Assembly (NCBI GenBank): GCA_026396875.1
Contig: JAPLVY010000007.1
Coordinates: forward strand, 13,047-77,046
DNA length: 64,000 bases
Reading direction: 5' to 3'
DNA from: Candidatus Falkowbacteria bacterium
GTDB taxonomy: Bacteria; Patescibacteriota; Patescibacteriia; Patescibacteriales; UBA12465
Shown here in pieces: positions 21,211-26,624 of the stretch. The first letter of the stretch is position 1, and each line of letters starts with the position of its first letter. The notes under the pieces were generated by a model that saw nothing but the letters and a program-made list of their open reading frames with translations, was not told where the DNA came from and made no database searches. The position numbers and the translations under genes were made by a program.

Positions 21211-21651
21211 CTATTTTTTTTCGGGAGTAAGTAATATTTTTTTATCGTAGAACATCTGATAGTAGAAGTGATACGAATTGTTTTCATGCCTGTTTAAGAA
21301 AAGCAGCAGAGGTGAATTGGTGTAAATTGGCGTTGATAATTTTAAGTTTTCGTCCAATCTTTTCTTGATTGATTCAATAACCAACTTTGAAATAGAACTG
21401 GTATTATAACCGTTGAAATCGTGTCTGAGGTGAAGGCCAAGGTTACCCAGTTCAATTCCTCCTTGGTTACTGATAATACTCACTAATGAGTTTGTGTAGT
21501 TAATCAATGCAACGATTAAATCTTGCTTCTTCTGCTTTTGTTGACTAATTTTGTACAATGCGAATATCAAGCTCGCAATCAATCCGCCGATGATTAACAC
21601 TGTTAGCACGGCATTTTCTCCGATAAAACGTTTAAATTCTTCCATTTTCAA
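21211..21651 (-). CDS. Hypothetical orphan single-TM protein (146 aa)
   Basis: N-terminal TM; own consensus promoter and terminator. Confidence 0.6.
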   Translation of the reverse strand: MKMEEFKRFIGENAVLTVLIIGGLIASLIFALYKISQQKQKKQDLIVALINYTNSLVSIISNQGGIELGNLGLHLRHDFNGYNTSSISKLVIESIKKRLDENLKLSTPIYTNSPLLLFLNRHENNSYHFYYQMFYDKKILLTPEKK

Positions 21652-21786: not shown

Positions 21787-21850
21787 ATTGTCAAAGAACT
21801 GGCTTCAAACTTACAAGAGTAATTATAACATATTTTATAAATATTGTCAA
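21787..21850 (-). promoter_or_regulatory. Perfect sigma70 promoter with downstream boxA-like motif
   Basis: TTGACA-17 bp (ending TGT)-TATAAT (21850 to 21822); AGTTCTTTGACAAT (21800 to 21787). Confidence 0.8.
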
Positions 21851-21891: not shown

Positions 21892-21921
21892 AAAAAAACC
21901 ACCAAATAAAGGTGGCTTTTT
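21892..21921 (-). terminator. Terminator of the gap-hydrogenase operon
   Basis: CCACC/GGTGG stem with a U7 tail on the - strand, just after the hydA stop. Confidence 0.7.
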
Positions 21922-21938: not shown

Positions 21939-23636
21939 TTAAACCCTTTTTTTGAACTTCGTATGCAATAATTCGTGAGCGCGCTTATTTGTCTTGGCCC
22001 ATTCCATGTACTCCAAAACTGGACGATTGTCGTGTGCAGAACGCATTGGTAGTTTGTCATCTAACTGATAAAGTGCGGCTGTTCTTGACGCTCTTTCTTT
22101 GGCAGTGGTTGGTATTGGCTGTCCTCCACCACCAAGGCATCCACCCGGACAAGACATAACTTCGATATAGTCGTACTTACTCAAATTTTTAATCACCGGT
22201 TCAATGTTACCGATACCGTTTACAACCGCGACCCTCAAAGTGCGCCCAAAAATATTTACCTTCGCTTCCTTAAGACCGGAGGCGCCACGAACCGTTTTGA
22301 AGGCAATTTTTTTGGAGCGCTGGCCGTCAAGTAAAAACTTGGCTGATCGCAAGGCGGCCTCCATGACGCCACCAGAAGCACCATAGATAGCACCAGCGCC
22401 AGAACCATTATTCAGACAGAGGTCGTGAGCAACCGGCTTAAGCGCCGCGAAATCAATACCTGCTTTTTTAATCATAAAAGCAAATTCGCGAGTGGTGATT
22501 ACTCTGTCTACTGGCATCACGCCACTCTTTAGTCGGAATTCCGGGCGAACGATTTCAAATTTTTTGGCCGTACAAGGCATGACCGAAACAATTTCTATTC
22601 TCTTGGGATTAATCTTTTGCTCTTTGGCCCACCAAGATTTTATCAAACTACCCAAATGCATGTGCGGTGAACGAGCGCTAGTCAAGTGAGGAATAATTTC
22701 TGGGTGATAGTGTTCAACATAACGTACCCAGGCCGGACAACAAGAAGTAGTCATTGGTAAAACCGCTTTTTTGTCCTTTAATTTCTCCACCAATTCTTCC
22801 GCCTCTGTCATGGTCGTGATATCGGCGCCCAAATCAACATCAAAGACATAATCAAAGCCTAACATTTTTAAAGCGCTAGCAATTCTTCCTGGCATCTTGT
22901 CATCAAAAGGCAAGCCGAATTCTTCACCGATTGCCGCACGAATGGAAGGGGCAAACTGAGCGATCATGATCTTCTTTTTATTCTTTAGGGCTTTATTCAA
23001 TTCAGTAACAGAAAAGTTTTCCTGAATGGCGGAAACTGGGCAGCGCAAAGCGCATTGACCGCAAGAAATACAAGCAGAATCTTTTTTTGTCGCTTTGATA
23101 ATTTTATTAATTCCCTGTCCCTCGGAACGAAAGAAATTAATTTTCTGCAGATCAGCACAGGCGTCCACACAGTTATTACAGTCAATACATTGCTGATGGT
23201 TAAATTCCAGAGCCCCGCCGCCAAAAATTTCAATCTTACGGCGCATCTTTCTCTCCGGAAAGGTATTGGCCACTATTTTGTATTCTCTGGCCAGACGCAA
23301 AAGGTCGCAATCAAATAAACGAGGGCAATCTGCACAATACTCGGCGTGAGTTGCAAAAAGTAATTTCAAGTTTTCTTGACGACTTTTGGTGGCCTTAGGA
23401 CTATCAGTAAAAATCTCCATTCCGGAAACCGCTGACGCCTGGCAAGAGGCGACCAGTTTTTCCCTGCCCCTAACTTCAACAGCACAAACCCGGCAATTCG
23501 CCTTAACCTTTAAATCGGGGTGGTGGCAAAGAGATGGAATTAGCACTCCAGCATTTTCTGCTGCCATCAAAATAGTTTCACCAGACTCACAGGTGACCTT
23601 TTTACCGTTTAATTTGAAGTTTACTTTTTTGGTCAT
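21939..23636 (-). CDS. hydA: [FeFe]-hydrogenase group A catalytic subunit (M3 architecture)
   Basis: H-cluster L1 TSCCPAW, L2 MPCTAKKFE, L3 EVMSCPGGCLGGGGQP; N-terminal 2Fe-2S (SLC..CRVC..SC); His-ligated HAEYCADC..C; two 4Fe-4S motifs CIDCNNCVDAC and CISCGQCALRCP. Confidence 0.95.
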   Translation of the reverse strand: MTKKVNFKLNGKKVTCESGETILMAAENAGVLIPSLCHHPDLKVKANCRVCAVEVRGREKLVASCQASAVSGMEIFTDSPKATKSRQENLKLLFATHAEYCADCPRLFDCDLLRLAREYKIVANTFPERKMRRKIEIFGGGALEFNHQQCIDCNNCVDACADLQKINFFRSEGQGINKIIKATKKDSACISCGQCALRCPVSAIQENFSVTELNKALKNKKKIMIAQFAPSIRAAIGEEFGLPFDDKMPGRIASALKMLGFDYVFDVDLGADITTMTEAEELVEKLKDKKAVLPMTTSCCPAWVRYVEHYHPEIIPHLTSARSPHMHLGSLIKSWWAKEQKINPKRIEIVSVMPCTAKKFEIVRPEFRLKSGVMPVDRVITTREFAFMIKKAGIDFAALKPVAHDLCLNNGSGAGAIYGASGGVMEAALRSAKFLLDGQRSKKIAFKTVRGASGLKEAKVNIFGRTLRVAVVNGIGNIEPVIKNLSKYDYIEVMSCPGGCLGGGGQPIPTTAKERASRTAALYQLDDKLPMRSAHDNRPVLEYMEWAKTNKRAHELLHTKFKKRV

Positions 23637-23646
23637 GAGAAATTAA

Positions 23647-24420
23647 TTATTTCTTTACTTCTTTTAAATTCTTATAAAGGAGAACCGTGAAGACATAAAG
23701 GAATGGTGACACGATAAACATAATAATCGAGTCGATAATATTCCAGGAAGTAACAAACACGGAGTTTCCTTGAAATGCTGCGCCAGGTAAACCGACAATC
23801 AGACTGAAGAGGTACAAAGCAAAACCGAGGAAAACAAGGCGACCAAAGGTGGCCCACCAATAACCTTTTACTAGCTCTTTGCTGGCTTTAATAGCGCTCA
23901 TGCCTTTTTTCCCCTCAAAGATAAAAATAATGACGGCAAAGCTATAGAAAACCGCAAAAATGATTCCAGGGATAATTAGTAAAATACTCCACAGAAGTAC
24001 TAGCACTAAGACCAAAAGACTTAACAGGAAAAACGGGGTAAACAGTCCCTTGCTCTCCTCCCAGGAAGATTTCACGGAAGAGAAACCGTTTTTAATTAAA
24101 AGGTAGGTAGCAGCTTTGGCTCTAGTACTATACCAGATGGCTAATGCCAAAGTGGCCAAGGCAATAATAACAATTAAAACCTTAATGACGACTGAGAGCA
24201 CCATGGAATCCTGGCCCTTCATTAAAAATAAAGTGGCCAAGCCAGCAATCAAGGCAACTCCGGCGAAAATTGCCAGAATAGCCAAGAGACCGTAGAGAGA
24301 TATGGTTACTAAATTCTTAAAATTGCTCCAATACATTTTCCAAGAGTTTTCAAATAAATCGAAAACTGGAATTAATTTTTTCTTAGCCGCCTTGGCAACT
24401 AACTTTTTTTCTGTTTCCAT
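23647..24420 (-). CDS. Integral membrane protein (about 5 TM), unknown function
   Basis: LFENSWKMY, LLIIPGIIF, AIKASKELVKGYWW motif of a common uncharacterised membrane family. Confidence 0.8.
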   Translation of the reverse strand: METEKKLVAKAAKKKLIPVFDLFENSWKMYWSNFKNLVTISLYGLLAILAIFAGVALIAGLATLFLMKGQDSMVLSVVIKVLIVIIALATLALAIWYSTRAKAATYLLIKNGFSSVKSSWEESKGLFTPFFLLSLLVLVLVLLWSILLIIPGIIFAVFYSFAVIIFIFEGKKGMSAIKASKELVKGYWWATFGRLVFLGFALYLFSLIVGLPGAAFQGNSVFVTSWNIIDSIIMFIVSPFLYVFTVLLYKNLKEVKK

Positions 24421-24443
24421 AAATTTTTTTTTAATAATTTTTT

Positions 24444-25490
24444 CTATTTTTTTATTTTTATTTTTAAAATATTTTCAGCATAACTATTTAGGGGTATGGG
24501 CAGGCTGGCACCAAGAGCACAGAAGCTGGAAGCTGAAAGGTTGTCCAGCAAATCCCTAACCTCGCCTTTAAAATTCAAGAAGTTCTTTGGGTCGGCTTTG
24601 AATAGTTCCAGCAAGCGATAAGTTCCCTCTCGACAAGGAGTACAATGGCCGCAAGTCTCGGCAACATAAAATTCTAGCCATTCTTTAACCAAGCGACGAG
24701 GATCAGTACCTGCCAAAACCACTTTAATTGATCCTGCCCCACCAACCGGGCGCTTGAGTTGCTTTTGGTTCAAGACTTCACCACTCATATCTCCGCCCAC
24801 AACTACAAAAAAATCTCTTTTTGGTGTATTGCCAGTTTCCTCTAGGATTTCTGAGATGCTGGCACTTTCGGAATAGGCATAAACTCCTGGATTTTTAAGA
24901 TCACCAGTAAGCGAATAGAATCTCTCTTGTTTAAACCTTCCCAAAACTAGCAGTCCAATATTATAGAAAGTTTCAAGATTATTAATTAAAGTTGGGCAAC
25001 CAAATAAACCTTTTTCTGCCGGATATGGTGGCTTGAGGCGTGGCTCAGCCAAAGAAAATTCAATAACATTGAGCATAGCACTTTCTTCTCCACTGATATA
25101 GGAGTGGCCGTTTTTAAACTCATTTCGCCAGAGTTTTCGAACAATCAAATTTTCTTTCTTCGCCAACTCTTGATCCAGGGAAGGCATGAATTCTTTACCG
25201 TAGTCAGCACTGGTAAAAAAATATATTTGAGAAATATTCTCTGGGCCAAAAAAGCTAATTGCCGCTCGTAAACCGGCAAAAAACTCAAGTAAATGATTAT
25301 CTAAAATGTGAGCATCTTTAAAAACTCCCGGTTCACCTTCAGAACAATTAACCACGATAATACCCTTTTTGCCACTCTTTTTTATGGAATCAAAAACACT
25401 TTGCCATTTTGAGGCAACAGGAAAGCTGGCGCCACCACGGCCGCAAAGGTTAGCTTTTTTGATTAAATTCAGAATTTTCTGATCAGGCAT
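24444..25490 (-). CDS. Minimal NuoF/HydB-like NADH:flavin subunit
   Basis: LCGRGGASFP..KW, NCSEGEPGVFKD, YISGEES, PRLKPPYP..GLFG.PT.INN.ET, SLBB region, ETCGHCTPCREG..FCALG. Confidence 0.9.
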   Translation of the reverse strand: MPDQKILNLIKKANLCGRGGASFPVASKWQSVFDSIKKSGKKGIIVVNCSEGEPGVFKDAHILDNHLLEFFAGLRAAISFFGPENISQIYFFTSADYGKEFMPSLDQELAKKENLIVRKLWRNEFKNGHSYISGEESAMLNVIEFSLAEPRLKPPYPAEKGLFGCPTLINNLETFYNIGLLVLGRFKQERFYSLTGDLKNPGVYAYSESASISEILEETGNTPKRDFFVVVGGDMSGEVLNQKQLKRPVGGAGSIKVVLAGTDPRRLVKEWLEFYVAETCGHCTPCREGTYRLLELFKADPKNFLNFKGEVRDLLDNLSASSFCALGASLPIPLNSYAENILKIKIKK

Positions 25491-25499
25491 GCAGGACTT

Positions 25500-26516
25500 T
25501 TATTTTAAATATTTTTTAAGCAGATAGGACAGTTCGACCAAACGATGCGAATAACCCCATTCGTTGTCATACCAAGCAACCACCTTGAGCAGGTCGCCGC
25601 CGACAAGCATGGTCGACTTCAAGTCAACAATTGAGCTGTTGGCGTTACCGATAATGTCGGAGGAAACTAGTTCTTCGTTGGAGGCTTCGATAATTCCCTT
25701 CATTTTCCCCCTGGACGCAATAACAAAAGCTTTATTGACTGCTTCAACAGTGGTTTTTTTACCAAGAACAAAAACTGTATCACAAAGAGAACCGACAGGA
25801 GTTGGAACTCGTACCGCCAAACCATCAAAACTATTTTTCAAGGAAGGAATAGTTTCAGTTACCGCAGTAGCCGCGCCAGTAGTGGTCGGCACAATATTCA
25901 TCGCTGCCGCTCGTGCTCGACGCAAATCTTTGTGTGGTCCGTCAACCAAATTTTGATCAGCGGTATAGGAATGAATAGTAGTCATTAAAGCTTTTTTGAT
26001 GCCGAAATGACTCTTAATAACCGAGGTAACGGGGGCTAGACAATTAGTGGTACAGGAAGCACAAGAAACCACGTTGTCAGTCTTGGAGATTTTATCTTCA
26101 TTTACTCCGATTACAATAGTTTTCACTTTGCCCTTTGCGGGAGCACTAATAATCACCTTCTGTGCGCCGGCATCGAGATGAGCCTGAACTTCTTCAGCGC
26201 TACGAAACTTCCCGGTACACTCGAGAACAATGTCAACTTTTAATTTTTTCCAAGGCAACAAATTAGGATCTTTCTGAGAAAAAACTGGATATTTTTGATT
26301 ATCGACCACCAGGGAATCTTTGGTGCTGCTAATTTTTCTTTGATAACGACCGTAGCAAGTATCATATTCCAGAAGATGCGCGAGAGTGGCCGTATCAGTT
26401 AAGTCGTTAACTGCTACGATATTCAATTTTGGGTGTTCATCCAAAATAATCTTAAAGGCCGCCCGACCAATGCGACCGAAGCCGTTAATTGCAATATTAA
26501 TCTTGCGATTGAACAT
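25500..26516 (-). CDS. gap: Glyceraldehyde-3-phosphate dehydrogenase, type I
   Basis: INGFGRIGR, ASCTTNC, WYDNEWGYS; extended -10 TGCTATAAT at 26562-26554. Confidence 0.98.
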   Translation of the reverse strand: MFNRKINIAINGFGRIGRAAFKIILDEHPKLNIVAVNDLTDTATLAHLLEYDTCYGRYQRKISSTKDSLVVDNQKYPVFSQKDPNLLPWKKLKVDIVLECTGKFRSAEEVQAHLDAGAQKVIISAPAKGKVKTIVIGVNEDKISKTDNVVSCASCTTNCLAPVTSVIKSHFGIKKALMTTIHSYTADQNLVDGPHKDLRRARAAAMNIVPTTTGAATAVTETIPSLKNSFDGLAVRVPTPVGSLCDTVFVLGKKTTVEAVNKAFVIASRGKMKGIIEASNEELVSSDIIGNANSSIVDLKSTMLVGGDLLKVVAWYDNEWGYSHRLVELSYLLKKYLK

Positions 26517-26580
26517 ATAAAAATTGTTTAAATAAATTTTATTAGTTAATTAAATTATAGCATAAGCGTCAAAAAAAATA

Positions 26581-26624
26581 AAAAAAGAGTATTACTTGCC
26601 ATGCAATGACAAGTAACACTCTTT
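26581..26624 (-). terminator. Terminator after the small orphan gene
   Basis: AAAGAGT-TTACTTG..CAAGTAA-ACTCTTT imperfect stem with an A-run that reads as a U tail on the - strand. Confidence 0.6.

Follow-up and report, generated by a model that had tools for sequence, protein, structure and literature searches.

Previous studies distinguish two types of [FeFe]-hydrogenases in which a NuoF-like flavoprotein, HydB, accompanies the catalytic subunit HydA. For Schut et al. (2022; PMC9304861), the hallmarks of the bifurcating family are a B subunit with a ferredoxin-type domain and a C subunit that resembles NuoE, and the clusters B2-B5 are absent from the non-bifurcating homologues. Losey et al. 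(2020; PMC7311640) separate the two types by four features of HydB: position 232 of Thermotoga maritima HydB, which is Ala or Glu in bifurcating and Thr or Ser in non-bifurcating enzymes; position 234, which is Met in the former and Lys, Ser, or Ala in the latter; a residue of the flavin mononucleotide (FMN) site, which is Phe in the former and Tyr in the latter; and the GGPSG motif in the SLBB domain, which is present in the former and absent from the latter. We analyzed a 64,000-nt window (the whole stretch of DNA studied, to whose positions all coordinates refer unless a locus is named) on contig JAPLVY010000007.1 of Candidatus Falkowbacteria bacterium, whose tiny genome is of the Patescibacteria type, and found on its minus strand a four-gene unit consisting of gap, which encodes glyceraldehyde-3-phosphate dehydrogenase (GAPDH), hydB, a membrane-protein gene, and hydA. 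As judged from the sequences, this unit probably couples the sole GAPDH of the genome to a two-subunit, NuoE-less, non-bifurcating, NADH-dependent [FeFe]-hydrogenase.

The hydB gene (24444..25490, minus strand) encodes a compact NuoF-like flavoprotein of 348 amino acid residues with the domains PF01512 and PF10589, a predicted FMN/NADH site, and one predicted N3-type [4Fe-4S] cluster. It aligns with HydB structures over residues 5-336 and with NuoF from approximately NuoF residue 50; the first ~48 residues of NuoF are missing from HydB, and the NuoF equivalog model TIGR01959 gives 162.6 bits against a cut-off of 558.65. All 47 compact HydB sequences that we compared contain PF01512 and PF10589 alone, with an additional weak SLBB match in eight of them, and Pfam detected a NuoE-like domain, an N-terminal [2Fe-2S] domain, or a C-terminal ferredoxin domain in none of the 47. 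The residues G17, G20, N48, E51, K58, D59, Y131, G134, E135, C280, C283, and C324 are invariant in these 47 rows, and 30 of the 32 rows from the order of the window's genome have the N3 cysteine C286. At the positions singled out by Losey et al. (2020), Lys58 and Tyr131 occur in 32/32 rows of the order and correspond to the non-bifurcating states; the NADH loop reads EPGVFKD, and its first position is Val56 in 27 of the 32 rows, Ile in three, Leu in one, and Thr in one. The GGPSG motif is replaced by GGDMSG (GG-x-x-S-G, with one extra residue). By sequence, three of the four features are of the non-bifurcating type and one matches neither type. Both defining parts of the bifurcating family are missing here, and by the definition of Schut et al. 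(2022) the enzyme is not a member of it.

Among the closest known counterparts are the non-bifurcating enzymes of Syntrophomonas wolfei and Syntrophus aciditrophicus, as described by Losey et al. (2020; PMC7311640). They likewise consist of an M3-like HydA and a NuoF-like flavoprotein, their HydB likewise carries Tyr in the FMN site and Lys in the NADH loop without additional Fe-S domains, and the same role has been proposed for them, namely the reoxidation of NADH to H2 at a very low H2 pressure. There are, however, differences in how the NuoE-like part is kept. S. wolfei retains a NuoE-like gamma module as a separate Hyd1C, and in Syntrophus aciditrophicus the HydC-like part forms the N-terminal portion of a fused, 66-kDa HydB, whereas the present HydB has 348 residues without such a module and the genome holds none elsewhere. 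The position equivalent to T. maritima HydB 232 also differs, being Thr or Ser in that type and Val here. A two-polypeptide NADH-dependent HydAB as such is already described, from Syntrophus aciditrophicus (PMC7311640); the predicted NuoE-less state here is one step beyond the characterized non-bifurcating enzymes. Compared with the bifurcating HydABC/Bfu enzymes of T. maritima, Thermoanaerobacter kivui, and Acetobacterium woodii (PDB 7p5h, 8a6t, and 7q4v), HydA is collinear and most similar, and the modelled HydA-HydB interface is of the same type, but there is no HydC, HydB has neither the N-terminal [2Fe-2S] nor the C-terminal 2x[4Fe-4S] part, Tyr stands in place of Phe and Lys in place of Met, and GGPSG is missing. 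With the NuoEF module of complex I, HydB shares the FMN-binding fold and the N3 cluster, although here NuoE and the N-terminal stretch of NuoF are missing.

The absence of a HydC/NuoE gene, which the initial annotation had claimed for the operon, extends to the genome: PF01257 (IPR002023; NuoE/HydC) has no match in the window's genome even at E <= 1. We extended the search to 41 genomes of the order, comprising the window's genome, 24 genomes from its family, and 16 from other families; the completeness of 34 of the 41 is 90% or higher, and the set includes a single-contig genome with hydB-hydA, G018. PF01257 was above cut-off in 0/41, the two matches below cut-off (E 0.02 and 0.06) being junk with stop codons inside, while the controls T. 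maritima and Bacteroides thetaiotaomicron were above cut-off in each family search, that is, for PF01257 and for the maturases HydE, HydF, and HydG. A further positive control comes from the same class, in which locus L088 (genome G361) encodes a 137-residue PF01257 protein (108.3 bits; L088:6032-6442, minus strand) directly upstream of a compact 358-residue hydB, followed by hydA. The method is therefore able to see a NuoE of the Candidate Phyla Radiation (CPR) where it is present. By its gene order, L088 looks like an intermediate or ancestral HydCBA state that preceded the loss of HydC.

We also considered whether hidden NuoE genes exist among the small open reading frames (ORFs) that immediately precede hydB where gap is lacking; of the eight, only that in L088 is NuoE-like. 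The others encode a nitroreductase, a gamma subunit of pyruvate:ferredoxin oxidoreductase (POR), a CDP-alcohol phosphatidyltransferase, a protein resembling energy-coupling factor (ECF) transporters (E 0.005, below cut-off), or proteins of no family, and two larger ORFs further upstream encode an SLH-domain protein and a transposase.

These searches bear directly on the explanation that the enzyme is an ordinary bifurcating HydABC whose hydC and maturase genes were missed through incomplete bins. The window's genome (767,118 bp in 10 contigs) is 88.98% complete, and the best solved relatives of HydA are subunits of HydABC, both of which would fit such an omission. Nevertheless, PF01257, HydE, HydF, and HydG exceed the search cut-offs in 0/41 genomes, including the 34 with at least 90% completeness and the single-contig G018; NuoE was detected where it is present, in L088; and the domains of the bifurcating family are missing from HydB itself in 47/47 sequences. 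We consider this explanation very improbable and close to refuted.

The hydA gene (21939..23636, minus strand) encodes an M3-type group A [FeFe]-hydrogenase catalytic subunit of 565 amino acid residues. Its Pfam domains are Fer2_4, NADH-G_4Fe-4S_3, a 4Fe-4S dicluster domain, Fe_hyd_lg_C, and Fe_hyd_SSU, which gives the order [2Fe-2S], NuoG-type His-ligated [4Fe-4S], two [4Fe-4S], H-domain, and small-subunit-like tail; the group A model TIGR02512 scores 448.2 bits (cut-off 405.95). The H-cluster motifs are TSCCPAW at residue 297, MPCTAKKFE at 353, and EVMSCPGGCLGGGGQP at 492, in line with the H-domain motifs L1 (TSCCPxW), L2 (MPCxxKxxE), and L3 (ExMxCxxGCxxGGGQP). The accessory clusters have the ligand sets C37/C48/C51/C65, H97/C101/C104/C110, C150/153/156/160, and C189/192/195/199. 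All three H-cluster motifs and four accessory Fe-S motifs reported in the initial annotation are thus in place, and they are kept in the relatives. In an alignment of 31 rows (the window and 30 loci, the truncated L065 being left out), whose members are about 43-85% identical to the window's HydA, the H-cluster ligands C300, C355, C496, and C500 are kept in 31/31 rows and C299 in 30/31, each of the 15 accessory-cluster cysteines is present in 30 or 31 rows, and the GGGGQP loop is invariant or nearly so. A second alignment of 45 rows shows the same pattern of conservation, with H97 kept in at least 90% of the rows.

In the alignment with Clostridium pasteurianum hydrogenase I (CpI), residues E278, E281, K285, T319, and C299 of HydA correspond to E279, E282, R286, S319, and C299, which form the proton path of CpI; the K285 position is Arg in at least 90% of the orthologs. 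HydA appears catalytically complete. CpI, a monomeric, ferredoxin-dependent group A1 enzyme, has the same M3 domain order, cluster ligands, and aligned proton-path residues, but it acts alone with ferredoxin, whereas the flavoprotein gene is always adjacent here. The clostridial ferredoxin hydrogenase model scores 492.9 bits on HydA. Among the solved structures, clostridial hydrogenase I (~390 bits) and Thermotoga HydA (323.4 bits) rank behind the HydA1 subunits of bifurcating HydABC.

The gap gene (25500..26516, minus strand) encodes a type I GAPDH of 338 amino acid residues (TIGR01534, 421.9 bits; cut-off 367.2) with both Gp_dh domains and the SCTTNC motif, which holds the catalytic Cys. It is the only GAPDH gene in the window's genome (a single PF02800 match), just as there are one hydA and one NuoF-like gene. 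Four families of lactate and alcohol dehydrogenases were searched for in this genome, namely Ldh_1_C, 2-Hacid_dh_C, Fe-ADH, and ADH_N, and none had a match; Ldh_1_C and 2-Hacid_dh_C are also absent from all 8 genomes of the genus searched. Within the set of 41 genomes, those without hydB have a lactate-type dehydrogenase in 5/8 cases and those with hydB in 8/33, 2-Hacid_dh_C being counted only at E <= 1e-40 and weak partial matches set aside. This complementarity is a trend only, since the genomes are related to each other. The genome also encodes an alpha-type subunit of a pyruvate:ferredoxin-type oxidoreductase (POR_N, 231.1 bits).

On this basis we propose the following path. GAPDH would reduce NAD+, and the resulting NADH would bind at the FMN site of HydB. 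The electrons would then pass singly through the N3-type [4Fe-4S] cluster of HydB to the [2Fe-2S] domain of HydA, and along the accessory clusters of HydA to the H-cluster, where protons would be reduced to H2. Reduced ferredoxin from a 2-oxoacid:ferredoxin oxidoreductase may enter HydA directly, and the membrane protein would be an optional accessory. We infer the electron path, the H2-evolving direction, and the specificity for NADH from the gene content and the residues described above. As the step from NADH to H2 is uphill under standard conditions, the scheme would work only where neighboring consumers hold H2 very low. Losey et al. (2020; PMC7311640) report 2.2-40.2 Pa H2 from a non-bifurcating NADH-dependent enzyme. 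That the host itself consumes H2 is a pure surmise.

The arrangement is kept across the order. We found hydB in 33/41 genomes (32 of the 40 relatives), fetched 31 loci, and mapped the proteins of the window onto them. In 31/31 loci hydB adjoins hydA, which in one is cut by the contig end, and gap lies upstream on the same strand in 27/31, the exceptions being L051, where the contig ends, and L067, L068, and L069. No more than 250 bp separate gap from hydB in 17 of the 27 loci, and in six (L040, L042, L043, L044, L057, and L064) the two genes lie ~750 bp apart; the window's own genus, from which six loci were fetched, contributes four of these. In L042 the space is taken up by a gene for a short-chain dehydrogenase (adh_short, 192.7 bits; L042:7052-7783, minus strand), a further NAD(P)-linked enzyme in the operon. 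In L068 (genome G035, same order), a POR gamma gene (L068:7253-7807, minus strand) directly precedes hydB-hydA, which hints at a ferredoxin link in that lineage. In the HydB tree, the window and 29 of the 31 in-order loci form a 30-row clade with a Shimodaira-Hasegawa-like approximate likelihood ratio test (SH-aLRT) support of 99, and 28 of these 30 rows have gap. The core reading of a HydC-less, non-bifurcating-type HydAB tied to the sole GAPDH and kept across an order holds as a prediction from these comparisons.

Outside the order the pair is much rarer. An even sampling of the phylum by 400 other genomes gave 22 with a HydB match, compared with 32/40 in the order; 20 loci were fetched, the weakest matches, in G136 and G129, being left out. 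A hydA with an H-domain adjoins hydB in 17 of the 20, two loci (L086 and L087) have an Fe-S protein without an H-domain instead, and one lies at a contig edge. In L086 (L086:1309-8217; genome G151, family f43), the genes encode in order GAPDH, a NuoF-like protein of 383 residues, a HAD hydrolase, a 211-residue Fe-S protein, a small ORF, and the products of pgk, tpi, and fba, and L087 resembles it; here a flavoprotein and an Fe-S wire stand in a glycolytic cluster without a hydrogenase site. The Fe-S proteins of these two loci (209-211 residues) match only residues 1-218 of HydA. Two single-contig genomes, G239 (L073) and G254 (L083), have one in-frame TGA in the open frame around hydB, which may be read as a residue, and an ORF of 166-168 residues without a Pfam family directly upstream of hydB. 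The loci L090 and L091 (family f49, genomes of 1.4-2.0 Mb) have long HydB ORFs of 441-668 residues and may keep a canonical multi-domain HydB. The synteny proposed as a check in the initial annotation was borne out in part: the linkage of hydB with hydA (31/31) and of gap (27/31) stands within the order, but the linkage of gap is mostly one inherited event and drops to 4/20 outside it, and the membrane gene is present in 13/31 loci only.

A model of the HydA-HydB complex, likewise suggested at the outset, passed its controls. The prediction was built on our own alignments (45 HydA rows and 47 HydB rows) in three runs with three controls, and the score was 0.84 in each run compared with 0.03 for the best of the three controls; the mark used for this score is reached by 58 of 80 solved complexes and by 2 of 110 mismatched pairs. 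At least 96% of the contacts are common to the runs, and the partner has a predicted local distance difference test (pLDDT) value of at least 88. In the modelled interface, HydB residues 276-292 and 310-328, the helices of the N3 cluster, lie against HydA residues 44-66 of the [2Fe-2S] domain and neighboring loops, a contact of the NuoF-NuoG type. Complexes of this kind have already been solved; hence, the result may reflect likeness only and not the binding of this pair without HydC.

The searches for the maturases gave a different picture from the catalytic subunit. HydG was found in 0/41 genomes of the order, HydE was above cut-off in 0/41 (four weak radical S-adenosylmethionine (SAM) matches reached at most 23.4 bits), and HydF at E <= 1e-30 was found in 0/41. 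In the window's genome, HydE and HydG were not found, and the HydF search gave only fragments of Der-type GTPases, which reach at most 86.2 bits (cut-off 325.55). The single-contig G018 with its hydB-hydA has none of NuoE/HydC, HydE, HydF, and HydG, and HydG was not found in five of five high-quality genomes of other families with the pair, two of them single-contig. This lack was overlooked in the initial annotation.

Nine radical SAM proteins are encoded in the window's genome. Six are ordinary (MiaB, MtaB, NrdG, RlmN, HemW/STM4012-like, and Elp3), one has no family at E <= 1e-10, and two are adjacent MoaA- or viperin-like paralogues outside the window (contig C3:27479-29681; 401 and 345 residues, 36% identical), far below the cut-offs. 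We rejected this pair as substitutes for HydE and HydG, for it occurs in 0/40 relatives at E <= 1e-25 and does not travel with hydA; it is, from its distribution, apparently a strain-specific accessory pair.

Enzymes without the known maturases have been reported elsewhere. Among 130 archaeal genomes that encode hydrogenases, Greening et al. (2024; PMC11216029) count only 5 with the full maturase set; these authors infer an alternative maturation pathway and cite Giardia and Entamoeba. The [FeFe]-hydrogenases of DPANN and Asgard archaea described there are likewise of group A and occur in small-genome symbionts without HydEFG, but HydC accompanies HydB in the descriptions of the archaeal group A3 loci, and here there is no HydC. 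In the open-access papers to which our search was confined, we found no description of an [FeFe]-hydrogenase from CPR bacteria that lacks NuoE or the maturases. In the present enzyme, the H-cluster would be made by a route other than HydEFG. It is a tentative proposal, somewhat short of an even chance in our judgment, that the whole order and scattered lineages of the phylum have an [FeFe]-hydrogenase that is active and is assembled in the absence of HydE, HydF, and HydG, either by an undiscovered route or with the host contributing a maturation step or a [2Fe] precursor, and that is wired to a NuoE-less NuoF as the smallest NADH-linked hydrogenase known, linked to glycolysis through the GAPDH operon.

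If the maturases are truly missing, the H-domain might hold only the [4Fe-4S] subcluster, and HydAB would then be an NADH:acceptor oxidoreductase (with ferredoxin, for example, as acceptor) or a redox sensor that uses a NuoF-NuoG-like wire. The lack of a maturase in 41 genomes fits this idea, and so does family f43, in which L086 and L087 keep a NuoF-like protein and an Fe-S wire beside gap without an H-domain. However, C299, C500, K358, M353, M494, the GGGGQP loop, E278, and E281, whose importance is confined to the [2Fe] subcluster and the delivery of protons, show strong purifying selection against a background of about 45-55% overall identity; moreover, organisms without maturases but with active [FeFe]-hydrogenases are reported (PMC11216029). 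We regard the loss of hydrogenase function as quite unlikely.

Several points nevertheless weigh against an NADH-dependent, GAPDH-linked hydrogenase at this locus. The textbook route of maturation would not be open to an enzyme without HydE, HydF, and HydG. The best subgroup model for HydA, NF040763 (NADH-dependent [FeFe] hydrogenase, group A6), scores 627.2 bits, below its cut-off of 765, and the closest solved structures are 8a6t_A (451.6 bits) and 7q4v_A (426.8 bits), the HydA1 subunits of bifurcating HydABC. Val56 of HydB corresponds neither to the Thr/Ser of non-bifurcating nor to the Ala/Glu of bifurcating enzymes. A NuoE-like module, separate or fused, is retained by all the characterized NuoF-type hydrogenase partners described by Losey et al. 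(2020; PMC7311640). In addition, the unit often has tsf, a PSP1-domain gene, and cca as neighbors, in the order tsf-PSP1-gap-hydB-hydA-cca, so part of the conservation of synteny is general collinearity. The linkage of gap within the order is best counted, from the tree, as one old retained event and not as 27 independent ones, and outside the order gap lies upstream in only 4/20 loci (L085, L086, L087, and L089). Finally, the POR subunit in the genome means that ferredoxin may feed HydA too, and, together with the POR gamma gene of L068, that it may even be the main electron donor.

The last point can be stated as a full alternative, in which HydA depends mainly on ferredoxin, like CpI, and is fed by the 2-oxoacid:ferredoxin oxidoreductase, while HydB serves as a side port through which NAD(H) equilibrates with the pool of ferredoxin and H2. 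NAD+ might then be reduced by H2 or reduced ferredoxin, in the uptake direction, or the two donors might be used loosely side by side. The M3 accessory-cluster set of CpI is complete in HydA, which aligns with CpI end to end at ~390 bits, the genome has the POR_N match of 231.1 bits, a POR gamma gene stands directly upstream of hydB-hydA in L068, and the formation of H2 from NADH alone is thermodynamically hard; Losey et al. (2020; PMC7311640) report only the low pressures given above. In contrast, hydB adjoins hydA in 31/31 loci of the order and in 17/20 elsewhere, and looks like an obligate partner rather than an occasional add-on; the usual upstream gene in the order is gap, which encodes an NADH producer; no other NADH sink was seen among the four families searched; and HydB is without the clusters that a ferredoxin site is said to require (PMC9304861). 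This alternative seems unlikely to us. The coupling of GAPDH to a NuoE-less HydAB is still the reading that we favor. The initial annotation had proposed exactly this, a stripped-down HydAB that reoxidizes GAPDH-derived NADH to H2, and the missing HydC, the non-bifurcating HydB, the sole GAPDH, and the four lactate and alcohol dehydrogenase families without a match uphold it, whereas the missing maturases and ferredoxin as a possible donor leave it only partly sustained.

The gene between hydB and hydA (23647..24420, minus strand) encodes a membrane protein of 257 amino acid residues. Hydropathy predicts five or six hydrophobic helices; matches to UPF0259 (E 0.0077) and YciC (E 1e-4) are below threshold, and the nearest Atlas clusters carry DUF7847, so that the protein may be called DUF7847/UPF0259-like. 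By tblastn, the gene is present at this place in 13 of the 31 loci of the order, and L048 has a divergent multi-helix ORF of 252 residues there; the gene is therefore optional. Greening et al. (2024; PMC11216029) describe an uncharacterized membrane protein of 4-6 helices, hyd6TM, that adjoins group A hydrogenase genes in archaea, and the present protein resembles it by description alone, in the number of helices and the hydrogenase neighborhood.

The layout of the unit agrees with the initial annotation, in which the four genes were co-oriented with very short spacing between a promoter and a terminator. All four ORFs lie on the minus strand at the positions given above, and the intergenic gaps between gap, hydB, the membrane gene, and hydA are 9, 23, and 10 bp. 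An extended -10 promoter element, TGCTATAAT (26554..26562, minus strand), was read directly ~38 nt 5' of the gap start codon. A scan for consensus promoters does not have TGCTATAAT at 26562-26554 among its sites because it is without a -35 hexamer at a spacing of 16-18 nt; the scan gave 16 promoter-like sites compared with a chance expectation of 13.2 +/- 3.3, and a promoter match by itself is therefore little proof. On the 5' side, the boundary is formed by the intrinsic terminator of the upstream gene for a 79-residue membrane protein (26584..26624, minus strand; a stem of 19 pairs, a 3-nt loop, and a T run), and on the 3' side, an intrinsic terminator (21893..21921, minus strand; a stem of 11 pairs, a 7-nt loop, and a T run) follows 18 nt past the hydA stop codon. 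With terminators on both sides, the four genes form a bounded unit, and they are probably co-transcribed. Just past the hydA terminator lies a perfect TTGACA-17-TATAAT promoter with an upstream TG (21822-21850, minus strand), and downstream of it an ORF for a single-helix protein of 146 residues (21211-21651) to which no Pfam family was matched.

Should the enzyme be inactive, some other reason would be needed for why its H-cluster residues are so strongly conserved. If it is active, a NuoF-type flavoprotein would work without the near-universal NuoE, and the pair would be a minimal NADH-to-H2 module of ~100 kDa that is attractive for engineering. The order would also be a second large group, after the archaea and some protists, that makes H-clusters without HydEFG, and its many near-complete small genomes would make the search for the missing pathway, or for a dependence on the host, tractable. 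For the organisms themselves, an active enzyme would give a concrete and testable reason why these fermenters need H2-scavenging neighbors, as their only recognizable outlet for glycolytic NADH would stall unless H2 is held at a few pascals.

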